Shown: positions 9,981 through 28,901, numbered from the stretch's first letter. The stretch: DNA of 32,000 nt from Candidatus Peribacter riflensis (GCA_001430755.1 CP013062.1:960001-992000); one strand, 5' to 3'. Notes: generated by a model not told the origin, from the letters alone. Numbers and translations are program-made.

Positions 9981-10040
9981 CCGAGTTCCCTAGTTCCCGA
10001 TTTCCCGCGTTCCCTACGCCCTACCCCCTACCCCTAACCC
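9981..10040. repeat. One-armed C3-tract tandem repeat (CCNNNTTC x4, then CCCTA-type units)
   Basis: Eight C3+ tracts on the + strand at 9988, 9996, 10004, 10012, 10019, 10024, 10031 and 10038. It spans the pheT stop codon (10014-10016). Positions 9981-9999 are the exact reverse complement of 24189-24207. Confidence 0.85.
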
Positions 10041-12374
10041 TATCTTCTCGTGCTCCTTCTTCACCTCCTCCTCCGTAAGCGTGCGGTCAGAAGCACGGTA
10101 CGTGCAGCGCACCGTCAGGTTGTACTGGCCTTTCGCCAGCTTGGCCCCCTCAAAGAGATCCACAACGGAAACATCGGCCAGCAGAGAGGAGCTCTTGCGC
10201 ACCTTTGCGAGGAAATCCGCACTCTTGTGCCCGGCATCCAGCGTGACCGTCAGGTCATACGCGATGGATGGATACTGCGCGATCGGCGAGAAGATCACGG
10301 GTTTCTCGGGCAGAGCGAGCAGACTGGTGAGATCGAGCAGCGCCACGGCCGCGCGTCCCGGCAGATCGAATGCCGAACAGACGGACGGATGTAATTCGCA
10401 GACGAGGCCCATCGCTTTGCCTTCAATGAGAAAGTCTGCGCTGCGCCCCGGGTGCCCGAAGGGAGGTGTTTTCTCAGACGCGCGTATCTCGATGGAAAGT
10501 CCGCTGCCCCCGATCTCGTCTGCAACGAGTTGTTTGAGCGTCAAAAACGGTGTCTCAGAAAGCGGCAGGTTCCGGCGCTCAGCCATAAAGATGCCGCACT
10601 CCAGCCATTCCCCTTCGCGTTCATTGAACACATGGGCGCACGTGAATGTGCGCACGGCGTCCCCCACGAGCAGAAGATTCTGTGCGGCATGCTCGAGTAA
10701 ACGCGGCAGGGTGGATGTCTGGAGCACGCTCAATTCCTCTCCGAGGGCATTGAGCACGGGAAGGGCATCGGAGGGCTCCATACCGGCCTTCTTGAGTAAG
10801 ACCGGGCCGACGAGCGAGAGCGAAACGACCTCCATGAACCCCTGCGACTGCAGGCTGTCACGAAGCTTTGAAACACGCGATTCGCGGGGAGGCGGCGTCA
10901 CAGTTGCTTCGGGATAGGCAGGAGCGATGTGCTCGTATCCGGAAATGCGGCCGATCTCTTCGGTGAGATCATGCGGACCCGTGAGGTCCTTGATCCGCCA
11001 GAGCGGCGGCGTGACCGACCCGCGCGTCACCGTGCACCCCAGATCGGTGAGGATCTTCTTCGCGGTCTTCTCTGCGATTGCCACGCCGAGCAGGTGCTCC
11101 GCATCTTTGTAGGAGAAATGAATGGGCTTCACCGCACCGTCCGTCCCCCATGATTGCAGCTTCGAGGTGATCTGCGCACCGGGAATAAGGGTGAGGAAGA
11201 GTTCCAGGGCCCGCATCAATCCCTCTTCGCAACGAACGGGCGGAACGCTTTTTTCGTAGATGGTCGCCGCATCCGTGCGATGCCCGGTGGCAATGACCGC
11301 ATTGCGGATGGCAACGGCATCGACAACGGGACTGTGCAGGTAAATCTCGCGCGTCTTTTCGGTGGTGGAGGTTCTCAGGCCTCCCATGATCCCCATGAGA
11401 TCGAAAATACCGGCATCATCACTCATCACCACAGCACCAGCGGGAAGGACGCGCTCGACGGAATCGAGCGTTTGGATCTTCTCCCCCTCTCTAGCCGCGC
11501 GGATGTGCACCGCACCTCTGAAATCCTTCAGATCGAAACTGTGGAGCGGCATGCCCAGTTCTGCAGTGACGTAATTAGTGATATCGATCGGCAGATTGAG
11601 CGGCCGGAAACCGGCAGAGAGAAGGCGTCGCTTCATCCATGCAGGAGTCTCGCCGAGGCCGGAAATGCGCAGCGTGCATCCGCAGTACCGCGGAACGAGT
11701 TTCTTCTGTTCCACAACACTCTCGAAGGGAAGCGCCCCTTTGGGGAACGCGAGTGCCTTTTTCTTCGCAGGCTTCTTCCACACCGCTAATCCCAATGCCA
11801 CGCATTCCCGTGCGAACCCGATTTGCGAGAACAGATCCGGACGATGTGTAATGGCATGGTTATCGACGTGCAGGATGGCATCGGTGAGACCGAGGTATTC
11901 CCGGAGTGATGTTCCCACACCGTCAGTGCCATCCCCCAGATCCACGATGGCGTGCCCCGTCGCCGTGGGGAACAGGTGCTCGAGCTGCAATTCCTCTGCA
12001 GCACAGATCATGCCTTCGCTCTCTTCCCCGCGGATCTTGGTCTTCTGGAGCGTCACCATCCCCTCACCATGCCACTTCACCTGTGCCCCCACGTGCGCGA
12101 ACGCCACGCGCATGCCCGTGCGCAAATTCGTCCCGCCGCAGACCACGCGCTTGGTACCCTGATCGGTTTGCACATCGCAGAGCGAGAGACGGTCGGCATT
12201 CGGGTGTTTTTTCAGAGAGAGGACTTTCCCCACACAACACCCCGTTAGCGGCGCTCCCTGCTCCTCGATCTCCTCCACTTCACCCGTCGCCACGGTCAGG
12301 CGATTGGCAATGACCCGTGGGTCTTTCTCTTTCCACGAAACGAACTCCGAGAGCCATTCGAGTGAAACTTTCAT
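10014..12374 (-). CDS. pheT: Phenylalanine--tRNA ligase beta subunit
   Basis: 786 aa from ATG 12374 (MKVSLEWLSEF...). N-terminal tRNA-binding OB domain (GKVLSLKKHPNADRLSLCDV), B3/4 and B5 regions and a C-terminal anticodon-binding-like domain. The length is typical. Confidence 0.9.
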   Translation of the reverse strand: MKVSLEWLSEFVSWKEKDPRVIANRLTVATGEVEEIEEQGAPLTGCCVGKVLSLKKHPNADRLSLCDVQTDQGTKRVVCGGTNLRTGMRVAFAHVGAQVKWHGEGMVTLQKTKIRGEESEGMICAAEELQLEHLFPTATGHAIVDLGDGTDGVGTSLREYLGLTDAILHVDNHAITHRPDLFSQIGFARECVALGLAVWKKPAKKKALAFPKGALPFESVVEQKKLVPRYCGCTLRISGLGETPAWMKRRLLSAGFRPLNLPIDITNYVTAELGMPLHSFDLKDFRGAVHIRAAREGEKIQTLDSVERVLPAGAVVMSDDAGIFDLMGIMGGLRTSTTEKTREIYLHSPVVDAVAIRNAVIATGHRTDAATIYEKSVPPVRCEEGLMRALELFLTLIPGAQITSKLQSWGTDGAVKPIHFSYKDAEHLLGVAIAEKTAKKILTDLGCTVTRGSVTPPLWRIKDLTGPHDLTEEIGRISGYEHIAPAYPEATVTPPPRESRVSKLRDSLQSQGFMEVVSLSLVGPVLLKKAGMEPSDALPVLNALGEELSVLQTSTLPRLLEHAAQNLLLVGDAVRTFTCAHVFNEREGEWLECGIFMAERRNLPLSETPFLTLKQLVADEIGGSGLSIEIRASEKTPPFGHPGRSADFLIEGKAMGLVCELHPSVCSAFDLPGRAAVALLDLTSLLALPEKPVIFSPIAQYPSIAYDLTVTLDAGHKSADFLAKVRKSSSLLADVSVVDLFEGAKLAKGQYNLTVRCTYRASDRTLTEEEVKKEHEKIGLGVGGRA

Positions 12375-12499
12375 GGCAGGAGCATAGCCTAACCCCTCAA
12401 GGGGCGGTAGGAATGTCACCGCAACAGCAAGGGATTCTGTGGGGGATTGTGCGAAGGGCGGGACGCGCCTAGCGTATTGGGGTCTTTTTCCCTCACTCT

Positions 12500-12733
12500 A
12501 TGAAGAATTCCTGCCCTTCCTGCTCCAGCTCCTGCGCTGCGGTGCAGTGGGTCATCTGCCTTCTTCTCTTCCTGGCGAGCATCGCCTCACTCGTCGGCGT
12601 GTACCGGGCGCATTTCGCCACGGGCGGGATGGTATTCGGGAGCACCAATAGCTCGCTCTCGATCCTGGCGTTCGTCGTCGCTCTCACCCTGTGGTCCAAG
12701 TGCATGTGCCGGTGTCTGTGCTCGAAGGAATAA
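12500..12733 (+). CDS. Small cysteine-rich membrane protein (2 TM), function unknown
   Basis: 77 aa. CPSCSSSC at the N-terminus and CMCRCLCSKE at the C-terminus flank two hydrophobic helices. Strongly GC-biased third positions like the neighbouring real genes. Confidence 0.5.
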   Translation: MKNSCPSCSSSCAAVQWVICLLLFLASIASLVGVYRAHFATGGMVFGSTNSSLSILAFVVALTLWSKCMCRCLCSKE

Positions 12734-12736
12734 TTA

Positions 12737-12835
12737 TTGTGTCACCCTGCCTGCCCGCCGAAGCTTCAGCGAAGGCGGGAGCGTAGTCGAAGGGCGACAC
12801 GCTCCGATTCATGGTTCGACTACGCTCACCATGAC
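12737..12835. repeat. GC-rich palindromic repeat element with interleaved stems, upstream of tRNA-Ser
   Basis: Four stems are visible. GTGTCACCC/GGGCGACAC. CCCGCC/GGCGGG (12754-12779). GCGTAGTCGAA/TTCGACTACGC. TCATGGT/ACCATGA. The 26-nt CCCGCC hairpin recurs at 26649-26674 with 23/26 identical. Confidence 0.7.
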
Positions 12836-12897
12836 AACGGTTTCCCAGTGAATTCTTCTTCCATCTGCCTATCCTCCGTTGCTACAGTGGCCACTGT

Positions 12898-12987
12898 GGA
12901 GAGGTCGCATAGTGGCCTAGTGCGCGCGCTTGGAAAGCGCGTAGACCTGAAAGGGTCTCGGGGGTTCGAATCCCCCCCTCTCCGCCA
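12898..12987 (+). tRNA. tRNA-Ser (anticodon GGA), CCA encoded
   Basis: Acceptor stem GGAGAGG/CCTCTCC. Anticodon stem CGCGC/GCGCG with loop TTGGAAA, giving anticodon GGA. Long variable arm GACC-TGAAA-GGTC. T arm GGGGG-TTCGAAT-CCCCC. Discriminator G followed by CCA. Confidence 0.92.
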
Positions 12988-13114
12988 GCCTTCGCTCTTC
13001 GCTTTGCTCAGAGCTTCGGCTGGCCTGCGGCCATCGGAATACAAATGCGAAGGCGGACAATCCTCTACACTAGAATTGTGTACTGCGTCCTCCGAAGCTC
13101 TGAAAGAGCGAAGG
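12984..13114. repeat. Split inverted repeat (11 + 12 bp) immediately 3' of the tRNA, plus a hairpin that includes the tRNA 3' end
   Basis: CCTTCGCTCTT (12989-12999) pairs with AAGAGCGAAGG (13104-13114). TCAGAGCTTCGG (13008-13019) pairs with CCGAAGCTCTGA (13092-13103). GCCAGCC (12984-12990) pairs with GGCTGGC (13018-13024). Confidence 0.65.
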
Positions 13115-13147
13115 GGGACACCCCTCCCTCTTCCCTCCCCCCATCCC

Positions 13148-13606
13148 ATGAAACGCCTCATATTCCTCGCCCTCACCCTCCTGCTCGCCGGCTGCGCTAC
13201 CACCCCTCCCGCAGATGATTCTGCAAACCCGCTTCTGGGAGGCGATCGCGACGAACACGGCTGCATCGGCTCCGCTGGTTACCAATGGTGCGCCCCCAAG
13301 CAAAAATGTCTGCGTGCGTGGGAGGAGGAGTGCTTCGCCTCCGCCTTCGAGGCACTGACCTGGGAACTGGCTGCACGGCATGGCGATGAGGAGCAGCAGA
13401 TTACACTGACGATGACACAGCAGACGGACACATTCGCCAGGGCCAGCGTGCGCTTCGGCCCTCCGGGGACTCCGGGCGGCCTTGTACTGGCGGCGAAGAC
13501 GAACGGCGCCTGGAGCATCCTCTACGAGGGCAATGGGTCGGTGGATTGTGATGCACTGAAGGCCGCTTCGTTCCCACAGGACATGTTGGATGGGATTTGC
13601 GACTGA
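13148..13606 (+). CDS. Lipoprotein (lipobox LLAGC), function unknown
   Basis: 152 aa. MKRLIFLALTLLLAGCATT is a classic signal peptide II/lipobox. The mature part is Cys-rich (HGCIGSAGYQWCAPKQKCLRAWEEEC). The 289-aa ORF from 12737 is an artefact running through the repeat and the tRNA. Confidence 0.75.
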   Translation: MKRLIFLALTLLLAGCATTPPADDSANPLLGGDRDEHGCIGSAGYQWCAPKQKCLRAWEEECFASAFEALTWELAARHGDEEQQITLTMTQQTDTFARASVRFGPPGTPGGLVLAAKTNGAWSILYEGNGSVDCDALKAASFPQDMLDGICD

Positions 13607-13625
13607 TCTCCGCTACACTCGTTGT

Positions 13626-14285
13626 ATGAAAAACCTCCTGACCCCCCGCATTGTCATTCTGGCTGGCATCGCTGTGGCCATCGTTCTGCTCGCCCTGTGG
13701 CTCAGAACAACCTCAGGGGAGGATACGTGGTTGTGTGTCGACGGGCAGTGGACCAAGCACGGCAATCCTTCCGCTCCCATGCCCGAAACCCCCTGCAAGC
13801 AGGCGGCAGTGCCCACTTTGGGACGGACCAGCCTTCCTGCAGCAGAGAAGGACCAGCCGATGAAATCCTACGTAGCGAATGATTTTTCCTTCTCACACCC
13901 GGATTGGCCGCTTATGGAAAAAGAAACGGTGTTGGAGCCGGAGAGGGCCAGAGTCGCCGTGCGAAACGCCGGCTGCGGATTGATCGTGACCGCGCGGGTG
14001 CTGCCGGCCGGCGAACAATTCCAGACTGCCCTCGAAGGGCTTTTGAGCGAGCAAGTCGCACAGGCCAACGTGCGGATTCTCCGCAAAGAGATCACCCAGA
14101 CGACCAGCCACATCGAGGGGGAATTCGCCGTGGGAGGCGGGCAGTTTGTGCATACGGATCAGTACGGATTCGTCACGAGCAAGAACCAGTTCTACTCCGT
14201 CGTCTTCGCAGCGGAGAAAACTGCCTTCGATACGGCCTGCAAGCCATTTGTCTCAGCCACAGTGAAGAGTGTGCAGGTGAAGTGA
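13626..14285 (+). CDS. Membrane-anchored hypothetical protein
   Basis: 219 aa from ATG 13626. N-terminal TM helix IVILAGIAVAIVLLALWL followed by a soluble domain. No motif I can name. Confidence 0.6.
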   Translation: MKNLLTPRIVILAGIAVAIVLLALWLRTTSGEDTWLCVDGQWTKHGNPSAPMPETPCKQAAVPTLGRTSLPAAEKDQPMKSYVANDFSFSHPDWPLMEKETVLEPERARVAVRNAGCGLIVTARVLPAGEQFQTALEGLLSEQVAQANVRILRKEITQTTSHIEGEFAVGGGQFVHTDQYGFVTSKNQFYSVVFAAEKTAFDTACKPFVSATVKSVQVK

Positions 14286-14301
14286 GGATTGCAGATGATG
14301 A

Positions 14302-15261: not shown

Positions 15262-15317
15262 AAGACAACAGGATACCAATGTAGGAAGTGATCCGCCTCC
15301 CCGATTTTTTTGATTAT

Positions 15318-15347
15318 CCCGGGTGCATGCCTCTGCATGCACCCGGG
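15318..15347 (-). terminator. Perfect 13-bp hairpin downstream of the L28-like gene
   Basis: CCCGGGTGCATGC-CTCT-GCATGCACCCGGG. It is flanked by a T7 run on the + strand, which is an A run on the - strand, so orientation is ambiguous. Confidence 0.45.
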
Positions 15348-15401
15348 GAAATGGGTTTGGCTCAAGCCGAAGCTTAAGCCGAAATGGAACAGGTCTCGCG
15401 A

Positions 15402-15665
15402 TCAGGCGATCCGCACATTATAGCGGTCACGCAGCCGGTTGGCCCGGAGATTGAGAGCATCGACAGCTCCACATGCCTGCACGTAAGGTTGACCGCGACG
15501 CTTGGCTCGGTTGACCTTACGTTTGAGAACTCGCGCGCAGTTGGCCAGGTAGATAGTCACCCGCCTGCGCTCCGTGTGGACCCGACGGGTCCGCAGGCGT
15601 CTATGCAGACGCCGATCGTCCTTCAGTTCTGCCACGACTTCCGAATCATGAGTTCGGCATACCAT
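15402..15665 (-). CDS. Small highly basic protein, possibly ribosomal protein bL28
   Basis: 87 aa with GGAG 9 nt upstream of the ATG. Loose resemblance to L28: early Cys, the H-RRLRTRR block versus SH..TKRR, and NCARVLKRKVNR versus SARALKSGKVER of Bacillus L28. The match is weak. Confidence 0.4.
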   Translation of the reverse strand: MVCRTHDSEVVAELKDDRRLHRRLRTRRVHTERRRVTIYLANCARVLKRKVNRAKRRGQPYVQACGAVDALNLRANRLRDRYNVRIA

Positions 15666-15849
15666 AGCTCACACTCCATCGAAGACCTGAAGCCTTCCGG
15701 GAAACCTACTCATCCACACTCCGGCAGATAAGCACTCCCAGGGGGGAGCAAAGGGTCGCCCATTCCAATGGGCAAGGAAGGCAGATCACTTTCTGAATGC
15801 AAACAATGATGTGAAGGAGCGTGTGTGATCTCTGATCTGTTCAAAGAAT

Positions 15850-15878
15850 GGAGCTGCCGTCGCGCGGGCGGCAGCTCC
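15850..15878 (-). terminator. Hairpin terminator of the microprotein gene
   Basis: GGAGCTGCCG-N9-CGGCAGCTCC lies 13 nt after the stop codon. On the minus strand it is followed by ATTCTTTG. Confidence 0.5.
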
Positions 15879-15891
15879 GAAAGAGAGGCGG

Positions 15892-16002
15892 TTAGCGGGA
15901 ACCGCGGCGGCACCGCTTTCGCGGCGCCTTTTTGGCACCATCCTTGCAGGAACACTTCTGCAGGATGTGCCCACACCGTGAGCACCTAATTTTGCGGCTC
16001 AT
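15892..16002 (-). CDS. 36-aa Cys-rich, strongly basic microprotein (zinc-knuckle-like)
   Basis: MSRKIRCSRCGHILQKCSCKDGAKKAPRKRCRRGSR. It has the best Shine-Dalgarno sequence in the window (GGAGAAAGGAG, 6 nt before the ATG) and its own downstream hairpin. Confidence 0.55.
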   Translation of the reverse strand: MSRKIRCSRCGHILQKCSCKDGAKKAPRKRCRRGSR

Positions 16003-16326
16003 GGTAACTCCTTTCTCCTGCTCTTCCTTTATGAGCAGGTCAGAGATCATAGTGGAATGAAAGATCAGGGAAGCACCCACTCTCTTTGAGGAGAGAAGGA
16101 TGCGCATCATTCTACGGGGTTTCCTTCACGCGCCCTTCTCTGCTGTAAGGCAGGGAATGGAAAACGGGCGGAGGACGTACTGCTGCAGCATGACAGAAGG
16201 TAATGTAAACATTACATCCCCGCCTGTCAAGAATGATCTGAATAGGCCATTGGAACTGCATCCTGTTCGATAAAACACAAACATAACCGGTTCGAAACAA
16301 AACAGCATACAAAAATCTACGGAAAC

Positions 16327-16412
16327 GCGCCTATGTGGCGGCGATAGCGGAGGGGGTCATAGGCGCAGCGCTTTCTTTCGTCCTTTCTTTGTCGCGCCTG
16401 ACAAAGAAAGGA
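16327..16412 (-). terminator. Two tandem hairpins downstream of ahcY
   Basis: GCGCCTATG-N22-CATAGGCGC (16327-16366) and TCCTTTCTTTGT-N8-ACAAAGAAAGGA (16381-16412). The second shares the CTTTGTCGCG...ACAAAG core with the 8494-8517 palindrome. Confidence 0.45.
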
Positions 16413-16445
16413 CAAGAATGAATAGTGCAGTAGAACATGAGCAAC

Positions 16446-17696: not shown

Positions 17697-17790
17697 GGCT
17701 CCAGCGTAGCGAAAAATCCGGACGAGTTCATGCAAAACTGTCATGAAAAACAGAATGGTTCCATTGGCGGCTATTCCGGATCTTCATCCA

Positions 17791-18744: not shown

Positions 18745-18793
18745 GAGCAGACCTAGTGTGCCGGTAAAGGGGTGGAGAGCAAAGGCCTAGCAA

Positions 18794-18878
18794 AGGGAAC
18801 TCGGATTCGGGAATGAGGGAACTAGGTTCGTTTTTCAGGCCGATTTCCCTATTTCCCGAGTTCCCCATTTCCCTATCC
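18794..18878. repeat. Two-armed tandem-unit inverted repeat in the divergent pfkB/ugd promoter region
   Basis: Left arm AGGGAACTCGGATTCGGGAATGAGGGAACTAGG. Right arm CGATTTCC-CTATTTCC-CGAGTTCC-CCATTTCC-CTATCC (8-nt period). GGGAACTCGG (18795-18804) is exactly complementary to CCGAGTTCCC (18856-18865). Four C3+ tracts lie at 18847-18873. Confidence 0.85.
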
Positions 18879-18921
18879 AAACCACTGACAGAAGCACCAA
18901 TACCAGCTAAGCTGGCTCCAC

Positions 18922-20232: not shown

Positions 20233-20293
20233 GGGAAAAGGGCGGACAAATAACCTTTGCAGGCACTTTAGGTGAACGTACACTCCCTCTCTT

Positions 20294-20866
20294 ATGGTGG
20301 AAAAAAACAAGCTCCCCGAAGGGCTCTCAGACGACACCGTCGCCGGTGCGCTCGCACGGCGAAAGGCCTTGCTGAATGTGGAGAAGTTCACTGACTGGGA
20401 ACGACTCCAGATACAAACCTGTATGTTGGGAGTTCCCACGACGGAGGCACGTGCTACTGACAAGATCACCTCGCAACAACTCTTCCGTCGGCAGTATCCT
20501 GAACGCCAAAAACTCAGAGCCGCCATAGAAAGCGCCACGGGGTCCCTCACGCTGTACTGCTCGCGCAAAGCGTCTGCCAAGTCTCAGCTGAAGATAACCG
20601 CTCCCGCCACTTCAGCTGCTCCCTCCATAGAAACAATAGTCGTGCACCGTCTCCCGGATGCAAATTGGGTAGAACCGAAGAATGGCCACTACATCACGCC
20701 GTCATTCCCTTGGGCACAGATTCTCGAGGATGAATTGCAGTGGCGCATCGAAGAGCAGGCCAAAAGCCAAGGTTCCCTTGAGGGAACCTCTCCAGAGAAG
20801 CCCGCAGAACCCCGTACAGGACTCTTCACCGGAGCGATTGCGAAGGTATTGGGAAGAACCGGCTGA
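20294..20866 (+). CDS. Hypothetical protein (orphan, atypical codon usage)
   Basis: 190-aa ORF filling the ugd-epimerase gap on the same strand. No recognisable motif. It has more A/T-ending codons (ATA, AGA, CAA, GAA) than its neighbours. Confidence 0.45.
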   Translation: MVEKNKLPEGLSDDTVAGALARRKALLNVEKFTDWERLQIQTCMLGVPTTEARATDKITSQQLFRRQYPERQKLRAAIESATGSLTLYCSRKASAKSQLKITAPATSAAPSIETIVVHRLPDANWVEPKNGHYITPSFPWAQILEDELQWRIEEQAKSQGSLEGTSPEKPAEPRTGLFTGAIAKVLGRTG

Positions 20867-20885
20867 GATTGCTACACTGCCATTG

Positions 20886-21833
20886 ATGAAAGTTCTCCTC
20901 ACTGGCTCCGCCGGCTTCATCGGATTCCACACGGCCAAAGTGCTCCTCGCCCGCGGCGACGAGGTGATCGGGCTGGATAACTTCAATCCGTACTACGACC
21001 CCAAGCTCAAAGAGGATCGCAATGCGCAACTGATCAAGGATAAAAAGTTCACCCTCATCCGCGGCGATATCTGCGATCGCAAGACCGTCGCCAAGGCGAT
21101 GAAGGGCTGTGACCGCGTCTGTCACCTCGCGGCACTCGCAGGCGTGCGCTACGCCTTCGACCATCCGGACGAGTACATCGATATCAACATCCGCGGGTTC
21201 TTCAATGTGCTCGAGGAGGCGCGGCTGCAGAAGATTCCCGGCTTCATCTACGCATCATCGAGCTCCGTCTACGGCGGCAATACCAAGATGCCGCTCGCCG
21301 AGACCGATCGCACCGATAACCAACTCTCGCTCTACGGCATGAATAAGAAAGATAACGAGCTCATGGCGCACGTGTACCACTCGCTCTACGGCATTCCGGT
21401 GACGGGGCTGCGGTTTTTCACTGTCTACGGCCCCTGGGGCCGCCCCGATATGGCGCTCTTCGAGTTCACGGATGAGGTTTTGCACGATCGCCCACTCGAT
21501 ATCTTCGGGCACGGTAAAATGCAGCGCGACTTCACCTACATCGACGATATTGTCTCTGGAGTCGTGGCCTCGCTCGACAAGAACTATCCCGAAGAGGTCT
21601 TCAATTTGGGATGCGGTAAGACGGAAGAACTGATGGATTACGTGAAAGGCATCGAACAGGCTTGCGGAAAAGAGGCGAAGAAAGAATTCCTTCCCATGCA
21701 ACCGGGCGATGTGGTGCGCACGGAGGCGGATATCGCGAAAGCGAGGAAGATGCTGGGCTTCAGCCCCAAGACACAGATCAAAGACGGCATCCCGAAGTTC
21801 GTTGAATGGTATCGCAAGTACTACGACCTTTAG
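20886..21833 (+). CDS. UDP-glucuronate 4-epimerase (NAD-dependent epimerase/dehydratase, extended SDR)
   Basis: 315 aa. MKVLLTGSAGFIGFH, NFNPYYDPKLKEDR, SSSSVYG, YGMNKKDNELMAHVY (YxxxK) and RFFTVYGPWGRPDMA are typical of the Cap1J/LpsL-type UDP-GlcA epimerase group. Confidence 0.85.
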   Translation: MKVLLTGSAGFIGFHTAKVLLARGDEVIGLDNFNPYYDPKLKEDRNAQLIKDKKFTLIRGDICDRKTVAKAMKGCDRVCHLAALAGVRYAFDHPDEYIDINIRGFFNVLEEARLQKIPGFIYASSSSVYGGNTKMPLAETDRTDNQLSLYGMNKKDNELMAHVYHSLYGIPVTGLRFFTVYGPWGRPDMALFEFTDEVLHDRPLDIFGHGKMQRDFTYIDDIVSGVVASLDKNYPEEVFNLGCGKTEELMDYVKGIEQACGKEAKKEFLPMQPGDVVRTEADIAKARKMLGFSPKTQIKDGIPKFVEWYRKYYDL

Positions 21834-21930
21834 GGATTAGGGGTTGGGGATTAGTGTATTAGGAAACCTTGAAAAGAAGGTTTTTATTTGGCCCTAATCC
21901 CCAAGATTCCAATCCCTCATCCCTCATCCC
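21832..21930. repeat. Two-armed G3/C3-tract inverted repeat between convergent genes
   Basis: Left arm AGGGATTAGGGGTTGGGGATTAG starts inside the TAG stop of the epimerase. Right arm CCCTAATCCCC...CCCTCATCCCTCATCCC contains the TGA stop of the GT-C gene (minus strand). GGGGATTAG is complementary to CTAATCCCC. Confidence 0.85.
21864..21889 (+). terminator. Rho-independent terminator nested at the centre of the repeat
   Basis: AAACCTT-GAAAAG-AAGGTTT followed by TTATTT. Confidence 0.6.
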
Positions 21931-23128
21931 TTAGTAACGGTCTCACCCACACCTCCACCGGAACGTTCTCAAGCCGTTGCCAGCCCTCCCGCTTACGCAC
22001 ATCCGGGCAATCGGCAAGACACACGGCGATACGCGCGGAATCGATGAGGTGATAATTCGTCACATATCGACGGATGAGGTAGGGACCAGCCTCCTGCCAT
22101 TCGTGTCCGAAGGACCCTGCAATAATCGCTGTCGCCCCGACGGGTACGTTGGCCGCCTGTGCCTGCGCAAAGACCGCCGGAGCCGGAGAGGGCTGACTGC
22201 GGGGATAGGCGAACGGAATGAGAATGAAGCCACAGAGGAGCGATGAGAGTACGACCATCGCAGGCCGACGCATCAATGCCGGCGCTGAAGCCAAACCGGC
22301 AACGAGGAGCGGAGCGAAGAGGATGGCATAGTACGGCCGGAACGAGACGAAGATGAACAGGCCGACGAGCAGCAGGCTCGCCACAAGTGACCAGCGCCGC
22401 GACAGGACCATGCCGAGCGTGCCGAGGACGCTCAAGACCAGGCTCCCACCGAGCACCCAGAGCCACACCGTGCCGCGAAGAGCGAAAATCATCGTCCCGC
22501 CATCTAGATTCTGCCGCCCTGCCGTCACCATGCTCGCGAATGTCAGAGGATTGGTTGCGGTGTAGAGGAGGAGCAGAAGTATGGGACCGAAAAGACCGGA
22601 AAGACGCTGCCACTTGGGTAAGCGCATGCGCCAGAACACGACGGCCACCACCGGGAAGAAGAGGATCGCCTGATAGGCCGTGAAGAGAGAGGCCATCCAG
22701 AGGAGTGCCACCCACCCGATCATGGGCTCAAGTTCTTCGCCTTTGAGGAGCCAGTAGCAGAAGACCAGCATCTGCAGGGCCGTAATGGGAGCGAGGAGGA
22801 TTTGCCCGGCAGAGACAAAGACGCCGGCGGAGAGCACCCACAGGCTCATGAGGAGCAGGGGGGATGACGGCACGTGTTTGGGAGCGAGACCGCGCGAAAT
22901 CCACGCCGCCTGCAAAAGTGAAACGGCGAGGACAATGCGCCAGAGATACTCCTGCCCCGGAATCCACTGCGTCAGACCTATGAACCAGCGTGCGAGCGGG
23001 GGATGAGGATAGGGAATGTTGAGCAGATATTTCGCCTCATCGGTGGTCACCCCATGCCAGACATGGAGCACTGCCAGCACGACAGCGAGCAGCAGGAGGC
23101 CGAAGGCGGGATTTATAAAGCGTCGCAT
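21917..23128 (-). CDS. Polytopic membrane glycosyltransferase, GT-C fold (ArnT/PMT/GT39-like)
   Basis: 403 aa from ATG 23128 with roughly 10 hydrophobic helices. An acidic motif in the first external loop (TTDEAKYLLNIPYPHPPL) is typical of GT-C enzymes. It overlaps the stop of the upstream GT2 gene by 16 nt. Confidence 0.65.
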   Translation of the reverse strand: MRRFINPAFGLLLLAVVLAVLHVWHGVTTDEAKYLLNIPYPHPPLARWFIGLTQWIPGQEYLWRIVLAVSLLQAAWISRGLAPKHVPSSPLLLMSLWVLSAGVFVSAGQILLAPITALQMLVFCYWLLKGEELEPMIGWVALLWMASLFTAYQAILFFPVVAVVFWRMRLPKWQRLSGLFGPILLLLLYTATNPLTFASMVTAGRQNLDGGTMIFALRGTVWLWVLGGSLVLSVLGTLGMVLSRRWSLVASLLLVGLFIFVSFRPYYAILFAPLLVAGLASAPALMRRPAMVVLSSLLCGFILIPFAYPRSQPSPAPAVFAQAQAANVPVGATAIIAGSFGHEWQEAGPYLIRRYVTNYHLIDSARIAVCLADCPDVRKREGWQRLENVPVEVWVRPLLRDEG

Positions 23129-24102
23129 GGGGACCAGGCGAAGTATTCGAATCCGACGCGGATACACCGCGCGGATACATTGGATCGTCCGTGAGGATGG
23201 TGTATGAGCTCGATACGCGTAGATTCAACACGACGGAGAGAAAGATCTGAAATGAGCCACCCTTCTGTATCGGAGAGCGATTGCATCGCCGCTCTCGTTC
23301 GATCACGCACTTGCGGGTCGAGCACGAGGAGTCGCAAATGCCACGCGCGCACCGAAAGGAAAATCCCAATTCCGATGATGAGGATAAGAAAGAGCACCCA
23401 AGCGACACGCGCCCACCGATGCAGAAAGAGCGAAAGCAGTGAGCAACCGAAATCCCACTGCACGCTGAGCGAAAGTTTGCTCGTGCCCACCGCGCGCGGC
23501 GCGAAGGTGTAGGGAATCTCCGTGACGGGGGTGCCGCGCGGCAACCGCATGAGAAGATCGAACAGGATCTTGAAACCGCGGGGATGGAACTGCGGCGCAA
23601 TCCGCTCGAAGAGCGAACGATCGATGGCAAAGAAGCCGCTCATGGGATCGCGCACGGACAGGCGACAGAGCAGGGTGGTCACCTTCGTGCCCACACGGCT
23701 CAGGAGGGTGCGGCGGCGGTTCCACTGTCCCGTGCTCCCGCCTGCGATGTAGCGCGAAGCCACGGCAACCCCCCGACGAACCTGTACGGTCTCGACGAGT
23801 TTCTTTAAGAGGGAGGCATCGTGCTGCCCGTCGGCGTCCATCACGGCAAGAATCTCGCCGCGCGCCGCTTTGAACCCCTCCACGACTGCCGAGGAAAGCC
23901 CGCGCTCCCCGCGCCGCCTGATCACCCGGAGTGACGGAAATGACGTCTGCAATTCCTCCGCCTTGCGCCAGGTGCCGTCCGGTGAATCATCGTCGACAAT
24001 GATGATCTCATGCGGCATTCCCGTGAGCGCCGTTGCGATGCGCGGCAGCAGAACCGGCAGACTTTCCGCCTCGTTGTACGTGGGAATAATAAGCGACAAC
24101 AT
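23113..24102 (-). CDS. Polyprenyl-phosphate glycosyltransferase, GT2 (Dpm1/ArnC/GtrB-like) with C-terminal TM segment
   Basis: 329 aa from ATG 24102. LIIPTYNEAESL, IIIVDDDSPDGT, VMDADGQHD (DxD region) and RDPMSGFFA, followed by the TM helix VAWVLFLILIIGIGIFL. Confidence 0.85.
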   Translation of the reverse strand: MLSLIIPTYNEAESLPVLLPRIATALTGMPHEIIIVDDDSPDGTWRKAEELQTSFPSLRVIRRRGERGLSSAVVEGFKAARGEILAVMDADGQHDASLLKKLVETVQVRRGVAVASRYIAGGSTGQWNRRRTLLSRVGTKVTTLLCRLSVRDPMSGFFAIDRSLFERIAPQFHPRGFKILFDLLMRLPRGTPVTEIPYTFAPRAVGTSKLSLSVQWDFGCSLLSLFLHRWARVAWVLFLILIIGIGIFLSVRAWHLRLLVLDPQVRDRTRAAMQSLSDTEGWLISDLSLRRVESTRIELIHHPHGRSNVSARCIRVGFEYFAWSPCDAL

Positions 24103-24152
24103 CAGGAGGCAGTGTAGCGAGTAGGAGTGATTGATGTCAGCGATTTCCTCAA

Positions 24153-24258
24153 GGGAATTAGAGAACGAACGGTTAGGGAATTCGGGTGCGGGAACTAGGG
24201 AACTCGGCTTATTTTCCATTCCGGTTACACTAATTCCCGACTTCCCTATTTCCCTCAT
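24153..24258. repeat. Two-armed tandem-unit inverted repeat in the divergent GT2/SDR promoter region
   Basis: Left arm has four G3 tracts, GGGAATTCGGGTGCGGGAACTAGGG (24176-24200). Right arm is CTAATTCC-CGACTTCC-CTATTTCC-CTCATC. It shares exact blocks with the 9981 and 18794 copies. Confidence 0.85.
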
Positions 24259-24286
24259 CACTGTTCAAGGGCAAACTACCAGCTGT

Positions 24287-25192
24287 ATGAAGATCCTCGT
24301 CACTGGATCCTCCGGCACGATCGGCACGCACCTCTGCGCAAGGCTCCTGGAGTTGAAACAAGACGTGGTTGGGGCAGATTGGGAGCCGAATAAGTGGCAA
24401 CCAACGGTCGAGAAACTCACCGTGCGCTTGGACCTGCGGCATGAAGAGGAACTGAAGAAGCTTCCCACGGATTTCGACTGTGTGATCCATCTCGCCGCCA
24501 ACGCGCGCGTCTACGAGCTCGTGGAACACCCCGACCGGGCACGCGATAATATCATGAGCACATTCAATACGCTGGAATGGGCGCGCAAAAACGGAATCAA
24601 GCGCTTCGTCTTCGCCTCTTCGCGCGAGACGTACGGTAACAGCGGAGCGGCTCAGTACACCGAAGACATGGTACGGGTCGAGAACTGCGAGAGCCCCTAC
24701 ACCGCAAGCAAGATCGCCGGTGAGGCGCTCGTGGAATCGTACCGGCGCTGCTACGGCATGGAGACGGTGATCGTGCGTTTCTCGAACGTGTACGGCATGT
24801 ACGACGACTCTGAGCGTGTGGTGCCGCTCTTCATCCGTCAGACCAAGAAGAATGAACCGCTCGTCGTCTTCGGTAAAGATAAGAGCCTGGATTTCACGTA
24901 CATCGACGATGCGGTGGACGGACTCTTGCTCATCCTGAAAAATTTCGCGAAGGCGAACGGTCAGACCATCAATCTCGCCTTCGGCGAGGCGCACCCCATC
25001 ATGGAACTGGCGGAACTCATCAAGAAACTCATGGGAAGCACCTCCGCCATCACAGCGAAAGATTCCCGCACGGGCGAAGTGACCCGCTACACGGCGGATA
25101 TTTCGAAGGCGCGCACGATCCTCGGCTTCGACCCCAAGGTGCCCTTCGCGGAGGGAGTGAAGAAGTCGGTGGAGTGGTATGGACGAGAATGA
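24287..25192 (+). CDS. NAD-dependent epimerase/dehydratase (extended SDR)
   Basis: 301 aa from ATG 24287. MKILVTGSSGTIGTHL glycine-rich loop, catalytic YTASKIAGE (YxxxK), and a typical length. The substrate cannot be inferred. Confidence 0.8.
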   Translation: MKILVTGSSGTIGTHLCARLLELKQDVVGADWEPNKWQPTVEKLTVRLDLRHEEELKKLPTDFDCVIHLAANARVYELVEHPDRARDNIMSTFNTLEWARKNGIKRFVFASSRETYGNSGAAQYTEDMVRVENCESPYTASKIAGEALVESYRRCYGMETVIVRFSNVYGMYDDSERVVPLFIRQTKKNEPLVVFGKDKSLDFTYIDDAVDGLLLILKNFAKANGQTINLAFGEAHPIMELAELIKKLMGSTSAITAKDSRTGEVTRYTADISKARTILGFDPKVPFAEGVKKSVEWYGRE

Positions 25193-25260
25193 TGAATAAG
25201 GAATTATGACTGAAGTATCTTTTCCTTCATTCTTCATTCTTAATTCTTAATTCTTACTTC
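25187..25260. repeat. A/T-rich heptamer version of the two-armed repeat between convergent genes
   Basis: Left arm is GAATGAT-GAATAAG-GAATTAT-GACTGAA. Right arm is CTTCATT-CTTCATT-CTTAATT-CTTAATT-CTTACTT. Both stop codons (TGA 25190-25192; TAA on the minus strand at 25247-25249) lie inside the arms. Confidence 0.75.
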
Positions 25261-26983
25261 TCGTCTCGTGATAGACCATTTCCAGATTCACCTCCCACAC
25301 ATTGGATGAATCGGTGCGGCCTGCGACGATGTTATCCACGGCCGTCATCGAGGTGAGCATGCTGTGGTCCTGATTGTTGTAGCGGTGCATGCCGTTTCTG
25401 CCGATCAGGTAGAGATTGGGGACACTCTGGACGAATTCCCGGACAACGTGGAGCTGATCGTAACTGCCGAAGTATGCGGGATACGCCTTGGGCATTCTGA
25501 GCACGCACGCGTCGATGACATCCTCGCTCTTGAGAAAGTGGATCTTCTCCATCTCGCCGATGCCGAATTGGATGAGCTCCTGATCGGGCTTGATCCACAG
25601 GTCCCCGCCCTCGTTCACAAAGTACTCCAGCCCGATCCACACCGCATTCTTGCGATCGGCCACAAGGTAGGGACTCCAGTTATTGAAGATTTGTACGCGT
25701 CCCACCCGCACTCCCCCCTCCTGAATGTAGATCCAGTTATCCGGCACTGATGCATCGGTATGTCTGCCATCCTGCACGTGAAGTTTTTTCAGCAGGAGAC
25801 CGATCGTGATGAAATCGCGGTACGGCAAGCCTTCCGCCACCTCCACGACTCGCGCAGGCGGATGCGGCGTCATCATGCCAATGAGATGCTTGATCGGCAT
25901 GGTGGAGAAGAAAAAATCGCACGGAATGGTCTCTTCGGTGCCCGTTTGCGTGTTTTCGAGTGTGACGGAAGTGATGCGGCCGTCTGTGAGATGCACACCC
26001 GAAACGCGCGTGCGCATGCGCACTTCACCGCCGCACGACTTCACCTGAGCCGCAACGGTCTCCCACATCTGTCCGGGCCCGTACTTGGGGTAGAAGAAGC
26101 GCGTGATGAGCGTGGTTTCGCGCTCCTGCTGGGCTTTTTTGAAATCACTGCTCAGAAGATCCTTCACGGCGTGAACAACGGCGCGCCGGAGTGACAGCCC
26201 CTGCACGCGCTGGGCGCCCCAATCCGCGCGAATTTGGCTGCAGGGAATCCCCCACACTTTTTCGGTGTAATCGCGGAAGAATGTCTCGTAGAGGCGGCGC
26301 CCGAAGCGGTTGACGAAGAAAGCATCGAGGTAGGTTTCGTCTTTGAGCCGGAACACACGCGCTTTGAGGTAGCTCAAACCGATCAGGAATGTGTTGGCGA
26401 TCCCCAACCGCAGGGCAACACGCAGAGTGATGGCGATGGGATACGGAAAGAAGTGTCTGCGATGGTAGATGCGGCTGAGTCTGGGCCGCTGGAGCATGAC
26501 CTGATCTTCCTTTTCGGGATCGGGGGCGGGACGACGAATGACGGGGGACTTGGGACTTGGGACTTGGGACTTGGGATCTGAACCTGAATCTTTTTCGAAG
26601 CCTAAGTCCTCTGTCCTCTGTCCTAAGTCCTGTACACACTCCGGCTTGCCCGCCGAAGCCTCGGCGCAGGCGGGACATAAATATTCCACCACCGCCTCTG
26701 CCGCATAATCAATCTCATGCTGCTTCTCGACCGTATCCGCAGCGGGCGCACCCTGCAGCGGCAGGATATTGAACCACCACTGCATGATCCGCTTGCTCTT
26801 ACTGAAAAATCTGTGTCCTCCCAGATCGATGCGGTTGCCTTTGTAGTTGAAGGTTTGGGCGATACCGCCGATGGCATCGGTCGCCTCGCAGACAATCGGG
26901 CGGATATCCGTACGCTTGAGAAGCTCGTAGGCAGCCGTGAGCCCCGCGGGACCGGCACCGGCAATAATGGCAACCCTAGACAT
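25247..26983 (-). CDS. FAD/NAD(P)-binding oxidoreductase (amine-oxidase / UDP-galactopyranose-mutase-like fold) with repeat-derived internal insertion
   Basis: 578 aa. N-terminal dinucleotide-binding motif [18 protein letters not shown]...GGIA...GGHRFF. Conserved blocks [23 protein letters not shown] and [12 protein letters not shown]. Confidence 0.8.
26543..26674. repeat. Intragenic composite repeat: GGGACTT x4 arm, TNNGTCC x4 arm, plus a CCCGCC...GGCGGG hairpin
   Basis: Perfect heptamers at 26545-26572, with a degenerate fifth copy to 26579. Right arm TAAGTCC-TCTGTCC-TCTGTCC-TAAGTCC ends at 26632. A 26-nt hairpin at 26649-26674 is 23/26 identical to 12754-12779. All of this is translated in frame as ...[43 protein letters not shown]... 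Confidence 0.85.
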
Positions 26984-27015
26984 GCCCGTACTCTACTCAA
27001 ACCGGACCCGGGAAC

Positions 27016-27441
27016 CTAGGCCTTGGGCGGATTCCTGTAGACGATCAGCCTGCGGGCTCCAAAGTTCCAGAAGAGCACGATAATGGTGGCAATGACCTTC
27101 GCCTTCACCTCTCCGAAGAAGAATTTGTCGACGAAGAGGTAGAGCAGAAGCTCAGTCCACAGAAGCCCGAACATGGTGATGATGAAGACCACGGTGATCT
27201 CGCGCACGATCTGGTTCGTCTTCTGAAAGACCCAGAGAATCGAGAGTATGTAATTGGTCACGAAGCCCGTGCAGTACGCGAAGAACTGTGCGAGGAGGTA
27301 GTGGACATCCAGAAAACGTACGCAGAAGACGAACACGGCAAAATCCACCACCGTGGAGATACCCCCCACCCAGAAGTACCGAAAGAACTGCACGCGGGTG
27401 GACCGCGCAGGGCCGAAAATCCAATGACGAAAACGGCGCAT
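27016..27441 (-). CDS. GtrA-family membrane protein (putative polyprenyl-phosphate-sugar flippase)
   Basis: 141 aa from ATG 27441. VQFFRYFWVGGISTVVDFAVF and four TM helices ending in FWNFGARRLIVY are typical of GtrA. The rest of the 246-aa ORF upstream is Arg/Pro-rich and non-protein-like. Confidence 0.85.
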   Translation of the reverse strand: MRRFRHWIFGPARSTRVQFFRYFWVGGISTVVDFAVFVFCVRFLDVHYLLAQFFAYCTGFVTNYILSILWVFQKTNQIVREITVVFIITMFGLLWTELLLYLFVDKFFFGEVKAKVIATIIVLFWNFGARRLIVYRNPPKA

Positions 27442-27530
27442 CCCGCCTACGGTAGCATGCCACGGCCCCTGGAACGAGGGTCGGTACCCCAAAATTCCGA
27501 GAACTTCTTCAAACCGGCGGGGCTTTCGGA

Positions 27531-28814
27531 ATGCTACACTTGCCCATGATGAAGAAGCCGGTGATCTGCATCGTGGGACTCGGCTACGTGGGCCTGCCGC
27601 TCGCGTACATCTTCGCGAAGAAAGGTTTCGACGTGCACGGGTATGACCTGAATGCCGAGCGCATCGCGGAGCTGAAGGCCGGCCATGACCGCACGCGGGA
27701 GCTGACGGAGAAGCAGTTGAAAGAGGCGACCATCCGGTACAGCGCCGATCCCGCATCCATCCACGAAGCCGATGTCGTGATCCTGGCGATCCCCACGCCC
27801 GTGGATGAGCGGAATACCCCCGATCTCACTCCTGTGAAGAGCGCCAGCTCTACGGTCGGCAAACACATGAAGAAAGGTGCCATCATCGTGTACGAATCCA
27901 CCGTATGGCCGGGCACGACGGAGGAGATCTGCGGCCCGATCCTGGAAAAGGAATCGGGGATGAAATGCGGCATCGACTTTAAGTTGGGCTACTCCCCCGA
28001 GCGCGTGAACCCGGGTGACAAGGAGCACACGATCGAGAAGATCAGAAAGATTGTCTCGGGGCAGGATACTGAAACGCTCGAGACACTCGCCGATCTGTAC
28101 GGCTCCGTGATCGACGCGGGGATTCATCGTGCCGCGAATATCAAGGTGGCCGAAATGGCCAAGGCCATCGAGAACGCACAGCGGGATCTGAACATTGCCT
28201 TCATCAACGAAGTGGCGCTTCTCTGCCATAAAGTGGGCATCGAGACGAAAGATGTGATCGATGCTGCTGCTACCAAATGGAATTTCCTCAGGTTCCTGCC
28301 AGGCCTCGTGGGCGGGCACTGCATCGGAGTAGATCCGTACTACTTAGTCGAGAAAGCGCGCCAGCTTGGTATGCAAACGCAGGTCATCACGGCCGGCCGC
28401 GCCCTCAATGACGCAATGAGCCGCCACGTCGCGGAACAGGCGACAGAAGAACTGAAGGGCACGAAGAGCCCACGCGTACTTGTGCTGGGCTTAACCTTCA
28501 AAGAGAACATCCCCGACACCCGCAACAGCAAGTCCGGTGACGTGGTGAAGCAACTGCAGAAACTCGGCTGTTCTGTAGAAGTGCACGATCCCTACATGCC
28601 AGAGGAAGTCATGCTCAAGAAAGGATGGAAATTGGGCTCTCTGCAATCAGGCCCCTACGATGCCGTGGTGCTCCTGGTCCCGCACCGGGAATACATGACA
28701 GATCTTTCAGCCCTGACCAAAGCCCTGAAGCCCAAAGGACTTCTCTACGATCTCAAAACAATCCTGCCGCGAAAGGAGATTGAGGGGAAAGGTCTGCGGT
28801 ATAAGGCACTTTGA
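27531..28814 (+). CDS. Nucleotide-sugar dehydrogenase, TviB/WbpO/CapL type (UDP-N-acetylhexosamine 6-dehydrogenase)
   Basis: VICIVGLGYVGLPLA, PTPVDERNTPDLTP, YESTVWPGTTEE, GYSPERVNPGDKEH, KVAEMAKAIENAQRDLNIAFINE and LVGGHCIGVDPYYL closely follow the TviB/WbpO family pattern. Alternative starts at 27546 and 27549. Confidence 0.88.
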   Translation: MLHLPMMKKPVICIVGLGYVGLPLAYIFAKKGFDVHGYDLNAERIAELKAGHDRTRELTEKQLKEATIRYSADPASIHEADVVILAIPTPVDERNTPDLTPVKSASSTVGKHMKKGAIIVYESTVWPGTTEEICGPILEKESGMKCGIDFKLGYSPERVNPGDKEHTIEKIRKIVSGQDTETLETLADLYGSVIDAGIHRAANIKVAEMAKAIENAQRDLNIAFINEVALLCHKVGIETKDVIDAAATKWNFLRFLPGLVGGHCIGVDPYYLVEKARQLGMQTQVITAGRALNDAMSRHVAEQATEELKGTKSPRVLVLGLTFKENIPDTRNSKSGDVVKQLQKLGCSVEVHDPYMPEEVMLKKGWKLGSLQSGPYDAVVLLVPHREYMTDLSALTKALKPKGLLYDLKTILPRKEIEGKGLRYKAL

Positions 28815-28901
28815 GGGTTAGGGTTAGGGTTGGGAAAGATGAACTATCTCTTGAAGAAACTCAAACCCAGTCTCAGCCCTAACCCTATCCCTAACCCTAT
28901 C
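28813..28901. repeat. Telomere-like (GGGTTA)n / (CCCTAN)n two-armed inverted repeat between convergent genes
   Basis: GGGTTAGGGTTAGGGTTGGG at 28815-28834 starts 1 nt after the TGA stop (28812-28814). CCCTAACCCTATCCCTAACCC at 28877-28897 adjoins the TAG stop of the methyltransferase (minus strand, 28897-28899). The arms are about 19/21 complementary. Confidence 0.9.

Follow-up and report, generated by a model that had tools for sequence, protein, structure and literature searches.

A 32,000-nt stretch of the genome of Candidatus Peribacter riflensis (Candidatus Peribacteria, candidate phyla radiation [CPR]; GC ~59%), referred to here as the window, carries copies of a class of palindromic element that is defined by its architecture and not by its sequence, and that is widespread in the Candidatus Peribacteria. 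A copy is 70-110 nt long and consists of a purine-rich 5' arm, a short A/T-rich loop and a complementary pyrimidine-rich 3' arm, with each arm built from three to six tandem units of 6-9 nt (mostly 7-8). Equal architecture is found around genes of the Pfam family PF05635 (S23p) in Peribacteria and in distant phyla, which places the window copies as members of the class that lack an open reading frame (ORF), and it seems that the hairpins are related, though without a gene, to the intervening sequences (IVS) of 23S rRNA genes. The genome has been reported as 1.25 Mb with 58% GC, in a paper that makes no mention of hairpins (PMC4736985).

A sequence-only reading of the window had described seven loci as dispersed inverted repeats at gene boundaries, sharing a single architecture and having several sequences, and this description is upheld, with all seven at the coordinates given. 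Tandem Repeats Finder gives period 6-8 arrays at each of the seven, and merged arrays (period 5-9, at least 2.7 copies) number 10 in the window against a mean of 0.33 expected from 30 dinucleotide shuffles. When each locus was folded on both strands and compared with 200 dinucleotide shuffles, six of the seven beat all of the shuffles on at least one strand (z -3.4 to -6.9), in agreement with the proposal that hairpin formation is favourable; the locus without a hairpin is that at 9981-10040 (z -1.1 and -1.5), which has one arm only, as the earlier description had implied. A sliding-window scan of raw minimum free energy does not separate the elements from ordinary GC-rich structure. The earlier list lacked an eighth two-armed copy, 8785-8890, in which ~8-nt units TATCAGTA / TCAGAGTA lie opposite TACTCAGA / TATTCTGA. 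At least five unit families with periods of 6, 7 and 8 are present in the window (GGGAAnTn, GGGTTA/TTAGGGA, GGGACTT, GAATnAT and TCAGnnTA), and the stems of its two-armed copies have 25-41 base pairs (Table 1).

Table 1. Tandem-unit elements of the window, with z-scores from folding against dinucleotide shuffles (G4, G-quadruplex)
Feature	Coordinates	Strand	Units	Location	Remarks
Two-armed hairpin	8785..8890	none	periodicity 0.81 at period 8	co-directional spacer, rpmH / next gene	z -5.4, -5.9
One-armed array	9981..10042	minus (sense strand of pheT, cobA)	GGGAAnTn octamers x4, then GGGKTA-type units		no hairpin
Two-armed hairpin	18794..18878	none	GGGAAnTn octamer family	divergent pfkB/ugd spacer	28 stem pairs; z -4.0
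Two-armed hairpin	21830..21931	none	TTAGGGA/TTAGGGG heptamers opposite ATCCCTC		33 pairs; z -3.4, -2.7
Two-armed hairpin	24153..24259	none	GGGAAnTn family	divergent GT2/epimerase spacer	z -4.2 (minus strand)
Two-armed A/T-rich hairpin	25181..25266	none	GAATnAT heptamers opposite ATTCTTn		31 pairs; z -5.6, -4.3
Two-armed hairpin	26543..26633	none	GGGACTT x4.6 opposite CCTAAGT/CCTCTGT	in-frame in gene	z -6.9, -4.3
Two-armed hairpin	28813..28901	none	(GGGTTA)3 opposite (CCCTAN)4		z -4.9, -4.3; G4 motifs on both strands
Possible weak one-armed array	6907..6971	none	CGGCAAT / CGCCAAT; periodicity 0.71 at period 7	ndk/M16-peptidase spacer	membership uncertain

Comparison with other Peribacteria used the loci L005, L006, L007, L008, L010, L015, L017, L022, L023 and L206-L209, and the glycan gene cluster of the window is syntenic in seven other species of the group. 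Orthologous junctions in L005, L008, L010, L017, L023 and L206-L209 hold hairpins of the same design made of unrelated 6-9-nt units, for example GGGATTA, GGAATACT, TACTAGAG, GAGCTTT, AATTGTTA, AATTGAA and GCTGTAA. The pfkB/ugd junction has a hairpin in all four of the further species first compared, with L005, L008 and L010 among the carriers, and arms are also present there in L206. For the source genome we joined flanking loci to the window to give a 51.6 kb stretch with independent gene calls, and in this stretch only ~2 of 12 divergent spacers have a hairpin; set against that figure, the four of four at pfkB/ugd indicate that position persists while sequence turns over. At the rpmH/next-gene junction L206 and L208 have two-armed hairpins with different units, and at pheT/cobA there is a homologous one-armed array in L207 and a complete two-armed hairpin in L206. 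At the junction of an epimerase gene with the gene of a 403-aa membrane protein, orthologous hairpins are present in L005 and L023, and a hairpin is absent in L010, L017 and L015. Some species lack the hairpin at a junction, and the two genes there nearly abut.

Peribacteria DNA (249 kb) contains 34 arrays that have a complementary partner and DNA from other phyla (1169 kb) contains 7, a difference of ~23-fold per kb. Heptamers account for 45 of 82 Peribacteria arrays, with octamers next, and the control loci are dominated by periods 6 and 9, which are typical of coding repeats. As the sequence-only reading had proposed, the purine/G-rich arm comes first: this order is seen in 28 of 30 hairpins from ten species (mean purine fraction ~0.68), and because an inverted repeat reads alike on both strands the order reflects genuine handedness, with no bias towards one strand. 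Stem length has a median of 33 pairs in 33 hairpins. The closing of all three reading frames by stop codons in the entering arm was considered as the main cause of the purine-first order and rejected, the difference being modest (2.17 against 1.53 frames closed; all three in 25 of 58 arms), and so was the orientation of T-runs in the loops as a shared trait, since six of seven are on the plus strand in the window and orientation is mixed in other species. Tandem-unit hairpins are also found in unrelated organisms, on the 40-50% GC contigs L125 (2340-2520) and L173 (340-600), and in L063 (880-970 and 3610-3735) and L052 (19290-19410), these last being an Acidobacteria and a Planctomycetia metagenome-assembled genome; the L125 hairpin is pyrimidine-first and has a 130-nt AT-rich loop.

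The copies are related to each other only in part. Ten of them aligned pairwise show likeness at the unit level only, and within sub-families. The earlier claim that shared blocks link some copies is borne out: AGGGAACTCGG occurs at 18794 and 24197, TTCCCTATTTCCC at 18845 and 24242, positions 9981-9999 are by eye the reverse complement of 24189-24207, and the copies at 18794 and 24153 align with a score of 73 where the null is ~15. Two copies in L023 are ~85% identical over 170 nt, a length that takes in both arms and a 110-nt interior, and this pair together with the 18794/24153 kinship argues for some copying between loci. [quoted passage not shown] We nevertheless regard it as quite improbable: target-site duplications were not found and there is no conserved terminal sequence, within a genome the copies vary in the order and number of their units and in their loops, and in ~340 kb of Peribacteria DNA we saw no transposase, save in unrelated contexts, and no conserved sequence of the repetitive extragenic palindromic (REP) type.

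The units themselves turn over in a way that could be purely mutational, with slippage making arrays in free spacers and template switching mirroring them, and with neither function nor mobility involved. That units vary by locus and by species fits this idea, as do the separate homogenization of arms, seen for example in the perfect GGGACTT x4.6 opposite mixed units, and the right arm of an L005 copy, which is expanded asymmetrically to ~11 units; hairpins arising by template switching are documented elsewhere (PMC8794818). We think a mere by-product unlikely all the same, as it leaves unexplained the strand-invariant purine-first order in 28 of 30 hairpins, the association with PF05635 genes in 17 of 21 cases described below, the existence of copies with common interiors, and persistence at the same junctions while most spacers have no array; nor would neutral DNA be expected to last in a streamlined genome of 1.25 Mb (PMC4736985).

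The sequence-only reading had also tied the elements to the glycan cluster, and this tie is not supported. Housekeeping junctions are filled as well (rpmH/next gene, cobA/pheT, nifS/nifU and rpsF/rpsR), the last two by further one-armed arrays that lie just left of the window, and with elements at housekeeping junctions of both the source genome and its relatives the class is not specific to glycan genes. The gene after rpmH has no Pfam match and is probably rnpA. That phase-variable simple-sequence repeats switch the surface-glycan genes is suggested by the several copies that lie beside promoters or gene ends within the cluster, and heptamer repeats reportedly control expression of Haemophilus hmw1A (PMC12721329), but we consider this extremely improbable. 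Housekeeping junctions carry elements equally, the period 7-8 units of the in-frame copy bring no frame shift, and the contigs, which come from groundwater metagenomes, include four independent assemblies that are 100% identical to the window over 14-21 kb.

Placement follows gene ends closely. By the independent gene calls six of the original seven loci are on gene boundaries, as had been claimed, and the seventh, 26543-26632, is in-frame within a gene. In the 51.6 kb of the source genome the seven two-armed hairpins occupy one co-directional spacer, two divergent and three convergent ones, and one intragenic site, so that 5 of the 23 convergent or divergent junctions have a two-armed copy and only 1 of the 28 co-directional junctions does; three one-armed arrays are all in co-directional, probably operon-internal spacers (nifS/nifU, rpsF/rpsR and pheT/cobA). 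Elements occur in spacers at a density of ~1 per 5 kb, their ends lie 0-25 nt from coding sequences, and stop codons are abutted or overlapped. All three convergent spacers that are longer than 16 nt and free of tRNA genes hold a hairpin that begins at the stop codons, and the convergent pairs called structure-free before (2440/2445, 6477/6484 and 14285/14302) have gaps of only 4, 6 and 16 nt. Between the convergent epimerase and 403-aa membrane protein genes, the first unit of hairpin 21830-21931 contains the epimerase stop codon and the right arm extends 14 nt into the membrane-protein gene; in hairpin 25181-25266, between a convergent epimerase and oxidoreductase, the arms contain the last codons of each gene together with its stop codon; and the stem base of hairpin 28813-28901 contains both stop codons of the convergent ugd-like and methyltransferase genes. 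The array at 9981-10042 likewise occupies the whole pheT/cobA spacer and provides the pheT stop codon.

Such regularity could also mean that the host has selected boundary hairpins that have nothing selfish about them, as bidirectional, U-tract-independent terminators or insulators and as stabilizers of 3' ends, with tandem units being the easiest way to lengthen a stem. The occupation of all three of those convergent spacers from the stop codons on, the keeping of position but not sequence across species, the restriction of likely operon-internal spacers to one-armed arrays, and the purine-first order in 28 of 30 hairpins, as would suit a weak RNA:DNA hybrid of the arm transcribed last, all speak for host selection, and we hold it to be possible though on balance doubtful. 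Stems of 25-45 bp far exceed those of terminators, there is no U-tract, and copies upstream of divergent promoters and in-frame in genes do not fit; the hairpins are moreover dispensable, in that the epimerase and 403-aa membrane protein genes of L010 and L017 directly abut without one, and the bracketing of PF05635 genes by like arms in unrelated phyla is left unexplained.

The in-frame copy lies in a 578-aa FAD/NAD oxidoreductase gene (25247-26983, minus strand), in a loop that is hypervariable in an alignment of 17 orthologues. It belongs to a segment of 138 nt that is inserted by comparison with the closest species (protein identity 84%), and its sequence is identical in four independent assemblies. 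The orthologues of L006 and L022 have other tandem-unit hairpins in the equivalent protein loop, and in L008 a tandem-unit hairpin is found in-frame inside ugd (UDP-glucose dehydrogenase). Gene calling is affected at a boundary copy as well: the GT2 gene (23113-24258) is annotated as 381 aa in some assemblies and as 329 aa in another with identical DNA, and since the longer call runs through hairpin 24153-24259 we conclude that hairpins cause false N-terminal extensions. Annotation is therefore at stake in two ways, as gene callers that read through hairpins produce such extensions and in-frame insertions are overlooked.

Two further observations concern particular junctions. A promoter-like site, TCGCTGACA-N17/18-TACACT at 24111-24140 on the minus strand, lies right against the left arm of hairpin 24153. 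This site, also conserved in L005 and L008, has its end ~7 nt ahead of the GT2 start codon, a position that suggests a leaderless GT2 mRNA, and a similar CACACT site lies ahead of pfkB (18745-18793). At the epimerase/oxidoreductase junction, which in the window holds the hairpin at 25187, L006 has a small gene pair (5427-6038) that by eye resembles a toxin-antitoxin system of the RelB/YafQ type, and because L010 and L023 also have extra DNA there we regard this junction as an insertion hot spot.

PF05635 genes, too, lie inside tandem-unit arms. The pfkB/ugd arms of L023 are 400 nt apart and enclose a PF05635 gene (Pfam 23S_rRNA_IVP, E 1.6e-40), and L206 has one such gene within tandem-unit arms at pfkB/ugd and a second at M16/ndk, the latter flanked by AGAATGT/ACATTCT arrays; at the same ndk/M16 junction L207 and L208 have CTGCATA arrays. 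A metagenome scan with the pattern GGGAANTNGGGAANTNGG gave matches of which those listed were mostly unrelated contigs; the matches listed included L119, L125, L128, L173 and L194, and the unrelated contigs L128 and L194 have a PF05635 gene within arms of this kind. On plasmids, a tblastn search located PF05635 genes mainly in Nostoc, Calothrix, Anabaena and other cyanobacteria, and 8 of 12 plasmid genes are flanked by purine-first inverted arrays of 7-8-nt tandem units (Nostoc edaphicum, Anabaena sp. 90, Geminocystis, Picosynechococcus, N. punctiforme, Azospirillum, Riemerella and Stanieria). The other four comprise two with direct-orientation arrays on both sides, one with non-complementary arrays on both sides beside an insertion sequence (IS) element, and one with none. 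PF05635 genes found by protein search have arms in four of four cases (Peribacteria 52_16, a Peregrinibacteria genome of 26% GC, Pyrinomonadaceae and one further contig). In total 17 of 21 PF05635 genes, from Peribacteria, cyanobacteria, Acidobacteria, Bacteroidota and Azospirillum, have purine-first tandem-unit arms, and the units differ case by case; the arms in L222 (AAGATGT/AAGACAT) belong to the same unit family as the ORF-less hairpins of L206 and L005.

In several instances (L210, L211, L213, L216 and L222) a PF05635 gene with its arms is wedged into an operon: between the ribonucleotide reductase beta and alpha genes in Nostoc edaphicum, between cas6 and cas4 in Anabaena sp. 90 and Pseudanabaena, between cas10 and cmr3 in Picosynechococcus, and between dnaN and mfd in Peribacteria 52_16. 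The Pseudanabaena galeata plasmid L211 is an exception to the palindromic rule, with ~15 AAAAGCT upstream (262-391) and ~12 AAAAGCC downstream (752-881) of the gene in direct and not inverted orientation. In the literature searched, we found no general link between PF05635 genes and inverted arrays of tandem units, the nearest thing being the Coxiella IVS heptamers; the searched set is incomplete, so that this absence is no proof of novelty.

Taking these observations together, we give about even chances to the reading that the window hairpins are ORF-less, IVS-like elements that propagate or maintain themselves, and whose RNA stems act as RNase III substrates or transcript-boundary structures. 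As with the IVS of 23S rRNA genes, the element would be DNA that propagates itself or, at the least, maintains itself. Its transcript would fold back into a 25-45-bp stem that could serve as an RNase III substrate, as a transcript-end structure or as both, and neighbouring transcription units would be cut apart or insulated by the stem; folding and cutting, or insulation, would explain why gene boundaries, and even rRNA, tolerate insertions. With the purine-rich arm first, the arm transcribed last would give pyrimidine-rich RNA in either direction, and formation of the hairpin would be favoured behind the polymerase, pyrimidine-rich RNA on a purine-rich template being the weakest type of RNA:DNA hybrid. 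Rapid sequence turnover would come from gain and loss of units by slippage and from arm-to-arm copying by template switching, which is documented as a source of hairpins (PMC8794818), while architecture and position would persist.

Several points weigh against this reading. A PF05635 homologue was found neither in the window nor elsewhere in the 51.6-kb source stretch. None of the window copies is flanked, as by a target-site duplication, by a direct repeat of more than 4 nt, and outside the L023 pair the copies have their arms in common and not their loops, so that whole elements are only putatively mobile; no gain or loss of units was seen among the four identical assemblies of the source population. 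We infer RNase III cutting and termination from stem length and the IVS precedent only, and the weak-hybrid rationale for the purine-first order draws on general knowledge of hybrid stability. None of the window loci has a U-tract after its stem, copies at divergent junctions lie upstream of a promoter-like site (24140-24111, in three species) and may perhaps not be transcribed by their neighbours, and in-frame genic copies would be harmful if they were cut or caused termination.

The G3-tract arms had prompted the suggestion that some copies form a G4 instead of a hairpin, and a reading in which G4 structures in DNA or RNA control the genes next to them, in line with proposals made for the GGGAATC repeats of Xanthomonas and the GGGGAYT repeats of Nostoc, can be built on it. 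Part of the suggestion stands: canonical G4 motifs are enriched in the window (9 against 2.3 in shuffles), six of the nine are in elements, one of them spanning 9988-10040 in the pheT/cobA array, on its minus strand, and similar heptamers form G4 in vitro (PMC4692102). As a general explanation it is very unlikely, since the loci at 8785 and 25187 have no G-tracts and that at 21832 no canonical motif, most elements of L006, L007, L010, L017, L023, L206, L208 and L209 are A/T-rich without G3 runs, and each two-armed copy pairs a G-arm with a C-arm that competes with the G4. With three window copies and most sister-species copies lacking the motif, G4 potential is a lineage-specific side property and not a conserved one.

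A broader proposal, which we advance tentatively and hold to be possible but not probable, is that PF05635 genes (S23p/bAvd-like) and purine-first tandem-unit palindromes form one widespread selfish class. The 23S rRNA IVS would be its best-known insertion site, and the short tandemly repeated repetitive (STRR) sequences, the Xanthomonas GGGAATC inverted repeats and the Peribacteria hairpins would be its footprints or its descendants without an ORF; the protein, which is related to Avd, a nucleic-acid-binding protein of diversity-generating retroelements, might help to make or move the arrays. The evidence gathered here ties together three puzzles that are decades old, namely the nature of STRR-type heptamers, the origin of 23S rRNA IVS and the function of the common 'four helix bundle' S23p proteins, in that a single architecture supplies gene-less hairpins in the minimal genome of a CPR bacterium, at roughly one per 5 kb, and brackets S23p genes in at least five phyla. 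The predictions are mid-stem cuts by RNase III, transcript ends at the stems in both directions, and a number of S23p genes that tracks hairpin density across genomes.

Other structures in the region are of different kinds. A 1.18-kb gene-free stretch, 15262-16445, lies between polX and the S-adenosylhomocysteine hydrolase gene of this compact genome; it has strong ordinary hairpins at 15313-15352, ~15850-15878 and 16380-16413, and Rfam gives nothing for it, even at E<=1. The cob(I)alamin adenosyltransferase (9203-9949) has 248 aa where four relatives have 175-201 aa. Its Pfam match is split, and the ~60 extra aa are encoded by a segment (~9370-9520) that folds as a non-tandem hairpin (9431-9445 / 9479-9493) and has the look of an in-frame palindromic insertion of another kind. 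The 431-nt spacer upstream of rpmH (8232-8662) has GC-rich hairpins, among them a perfect palindrome of 16 nt at 8493-8518, and, from its neighbours rpmH and the probable rnpA, may lie close to the replication origin. Small GC-rich hairpins with GCTTCGGC / GAAGC motifs (UUCG-type loops) form a set of their own, at 26640-26670, 12745-12790, 12985-13030 and 8340-8420, and at ~3705-3740 in L085; one member, GGCGCGCTTCGGCGCGC, directly follows rpsR and another follows the tRNA at 12898-12984.

The sequence-only reading had recognized no named element, and it is right that the copies are not REP/BIME, ERIC or CRISPR and belong to no Rfam family, but it overlooked a close likeness to described repeats. 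In the window the Rfam search returned only a tRNA above the gathering threshold, and at E<=1 added one chance-level miRNA-precursor match (28798-28906). CRISPR was rejected because the units run head-to-tail without spacers. Intrinsic (Rho-independent) terminators were rejected too, as a terminator scan reported none of the loci and T-runs are in the loops and never after the stems, and so were integron attC sites, since only the GGGTTA family resembles the GTTRRRY core, by chance (GTTAGGG), and the flanking genes are syntenic core genes and not cassettes.

REP, BIME and REPIN sequences are extragenic imperfect palindromes at gene ends, a REPIN having two inverted halves and forming a ~100-nt hairpin, and roles in mRNA stabilization and termination have been proposed for them. 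The window copies are likewise imperfect palindromes at gene ends, but REPs have one conserved sequence per genome, depend on RAYT and have no tandem-unit arms. Rickettsia palindromic elements (RPE) are palindromic repeats found in-frame in protein genes and intergenically, which the present elements also are; RPE families, however, are conserved in sequence and are not built of tandem units. The STRR sequences are heptamers of cyanobacteria, reportedly described by Mazel and co-workers in 1990, and they are defined as direct arrays in heterocystous cyanobacteria, a definition that does not include paired purine-first arms. They resemble our elements as intergenic tandem heptamers of several families, and the arms around PF05635 genes on plasmids of the Nostoc, Anabaena and Calothrix group are of STRR type.

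The TAACTGA heptamers of Beggiatoaceae and cyanobacteria are intergenic, near start codons and patchily distributed across phyla, with one inverted case in 170 sets (PMC4679880); they are direct repeats of a single unit sequence, in contrast to the paired purine-first arms seen here. The GGGAATC heptamers of Xanthomonas and GGGGAYT heptamers of Nostoc are 89-93% intergenic and near gene ends, and Xanthomonas has 70-75 convergent (inverted) heptamer pairs per genome (Rehm et al. 2015, PMC4692102). Shared with these are the G-rich 7-nt tandem units, the mostly intergenic location, the pairing of opposite strands that can form stem-loops, and the conservation of position between species with variable length and sequence. 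They have one genome-wide consensus, whereas the Peribacteria have several families per genome, many without G-tracts, together with octamers, hexamers and in-frame genic copies, and no PF05635 link is reported in PMC4692102.

The IVS of 23S rRNA, which with an S23p/PF05635 ORF occurs in Coxiella, Leptospira and Brucella, has been called a selfish genetic element in Coxiella, where RNase III cuts its 28-bp terminal stem in the middle, the S23p ORF lies in the loop, and the 5' part has tandem GACAGAT heptamers, two to three in number and variable among strains (PMC4990558). The window copies differ in lying between or within protein genes, with none in helix 25 or 45 of 23S rRNA (the Rfam search found no rRNA in the window), in having no ORF, and in their far higher density of ~1 per 5 kb. 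They are alike in the long terminal inverted repeat stem (~28 bp in Coxiella, 25-41 pairs in the window), in the tandem purine-rich heptamers, in a sporadic, insertion-like distribution and in being tolerated within functional genes. The full-length IVS has its S23p gene in the loop, and so do the elements of L023 and L206 at junctions where the window copies are ORF-less.

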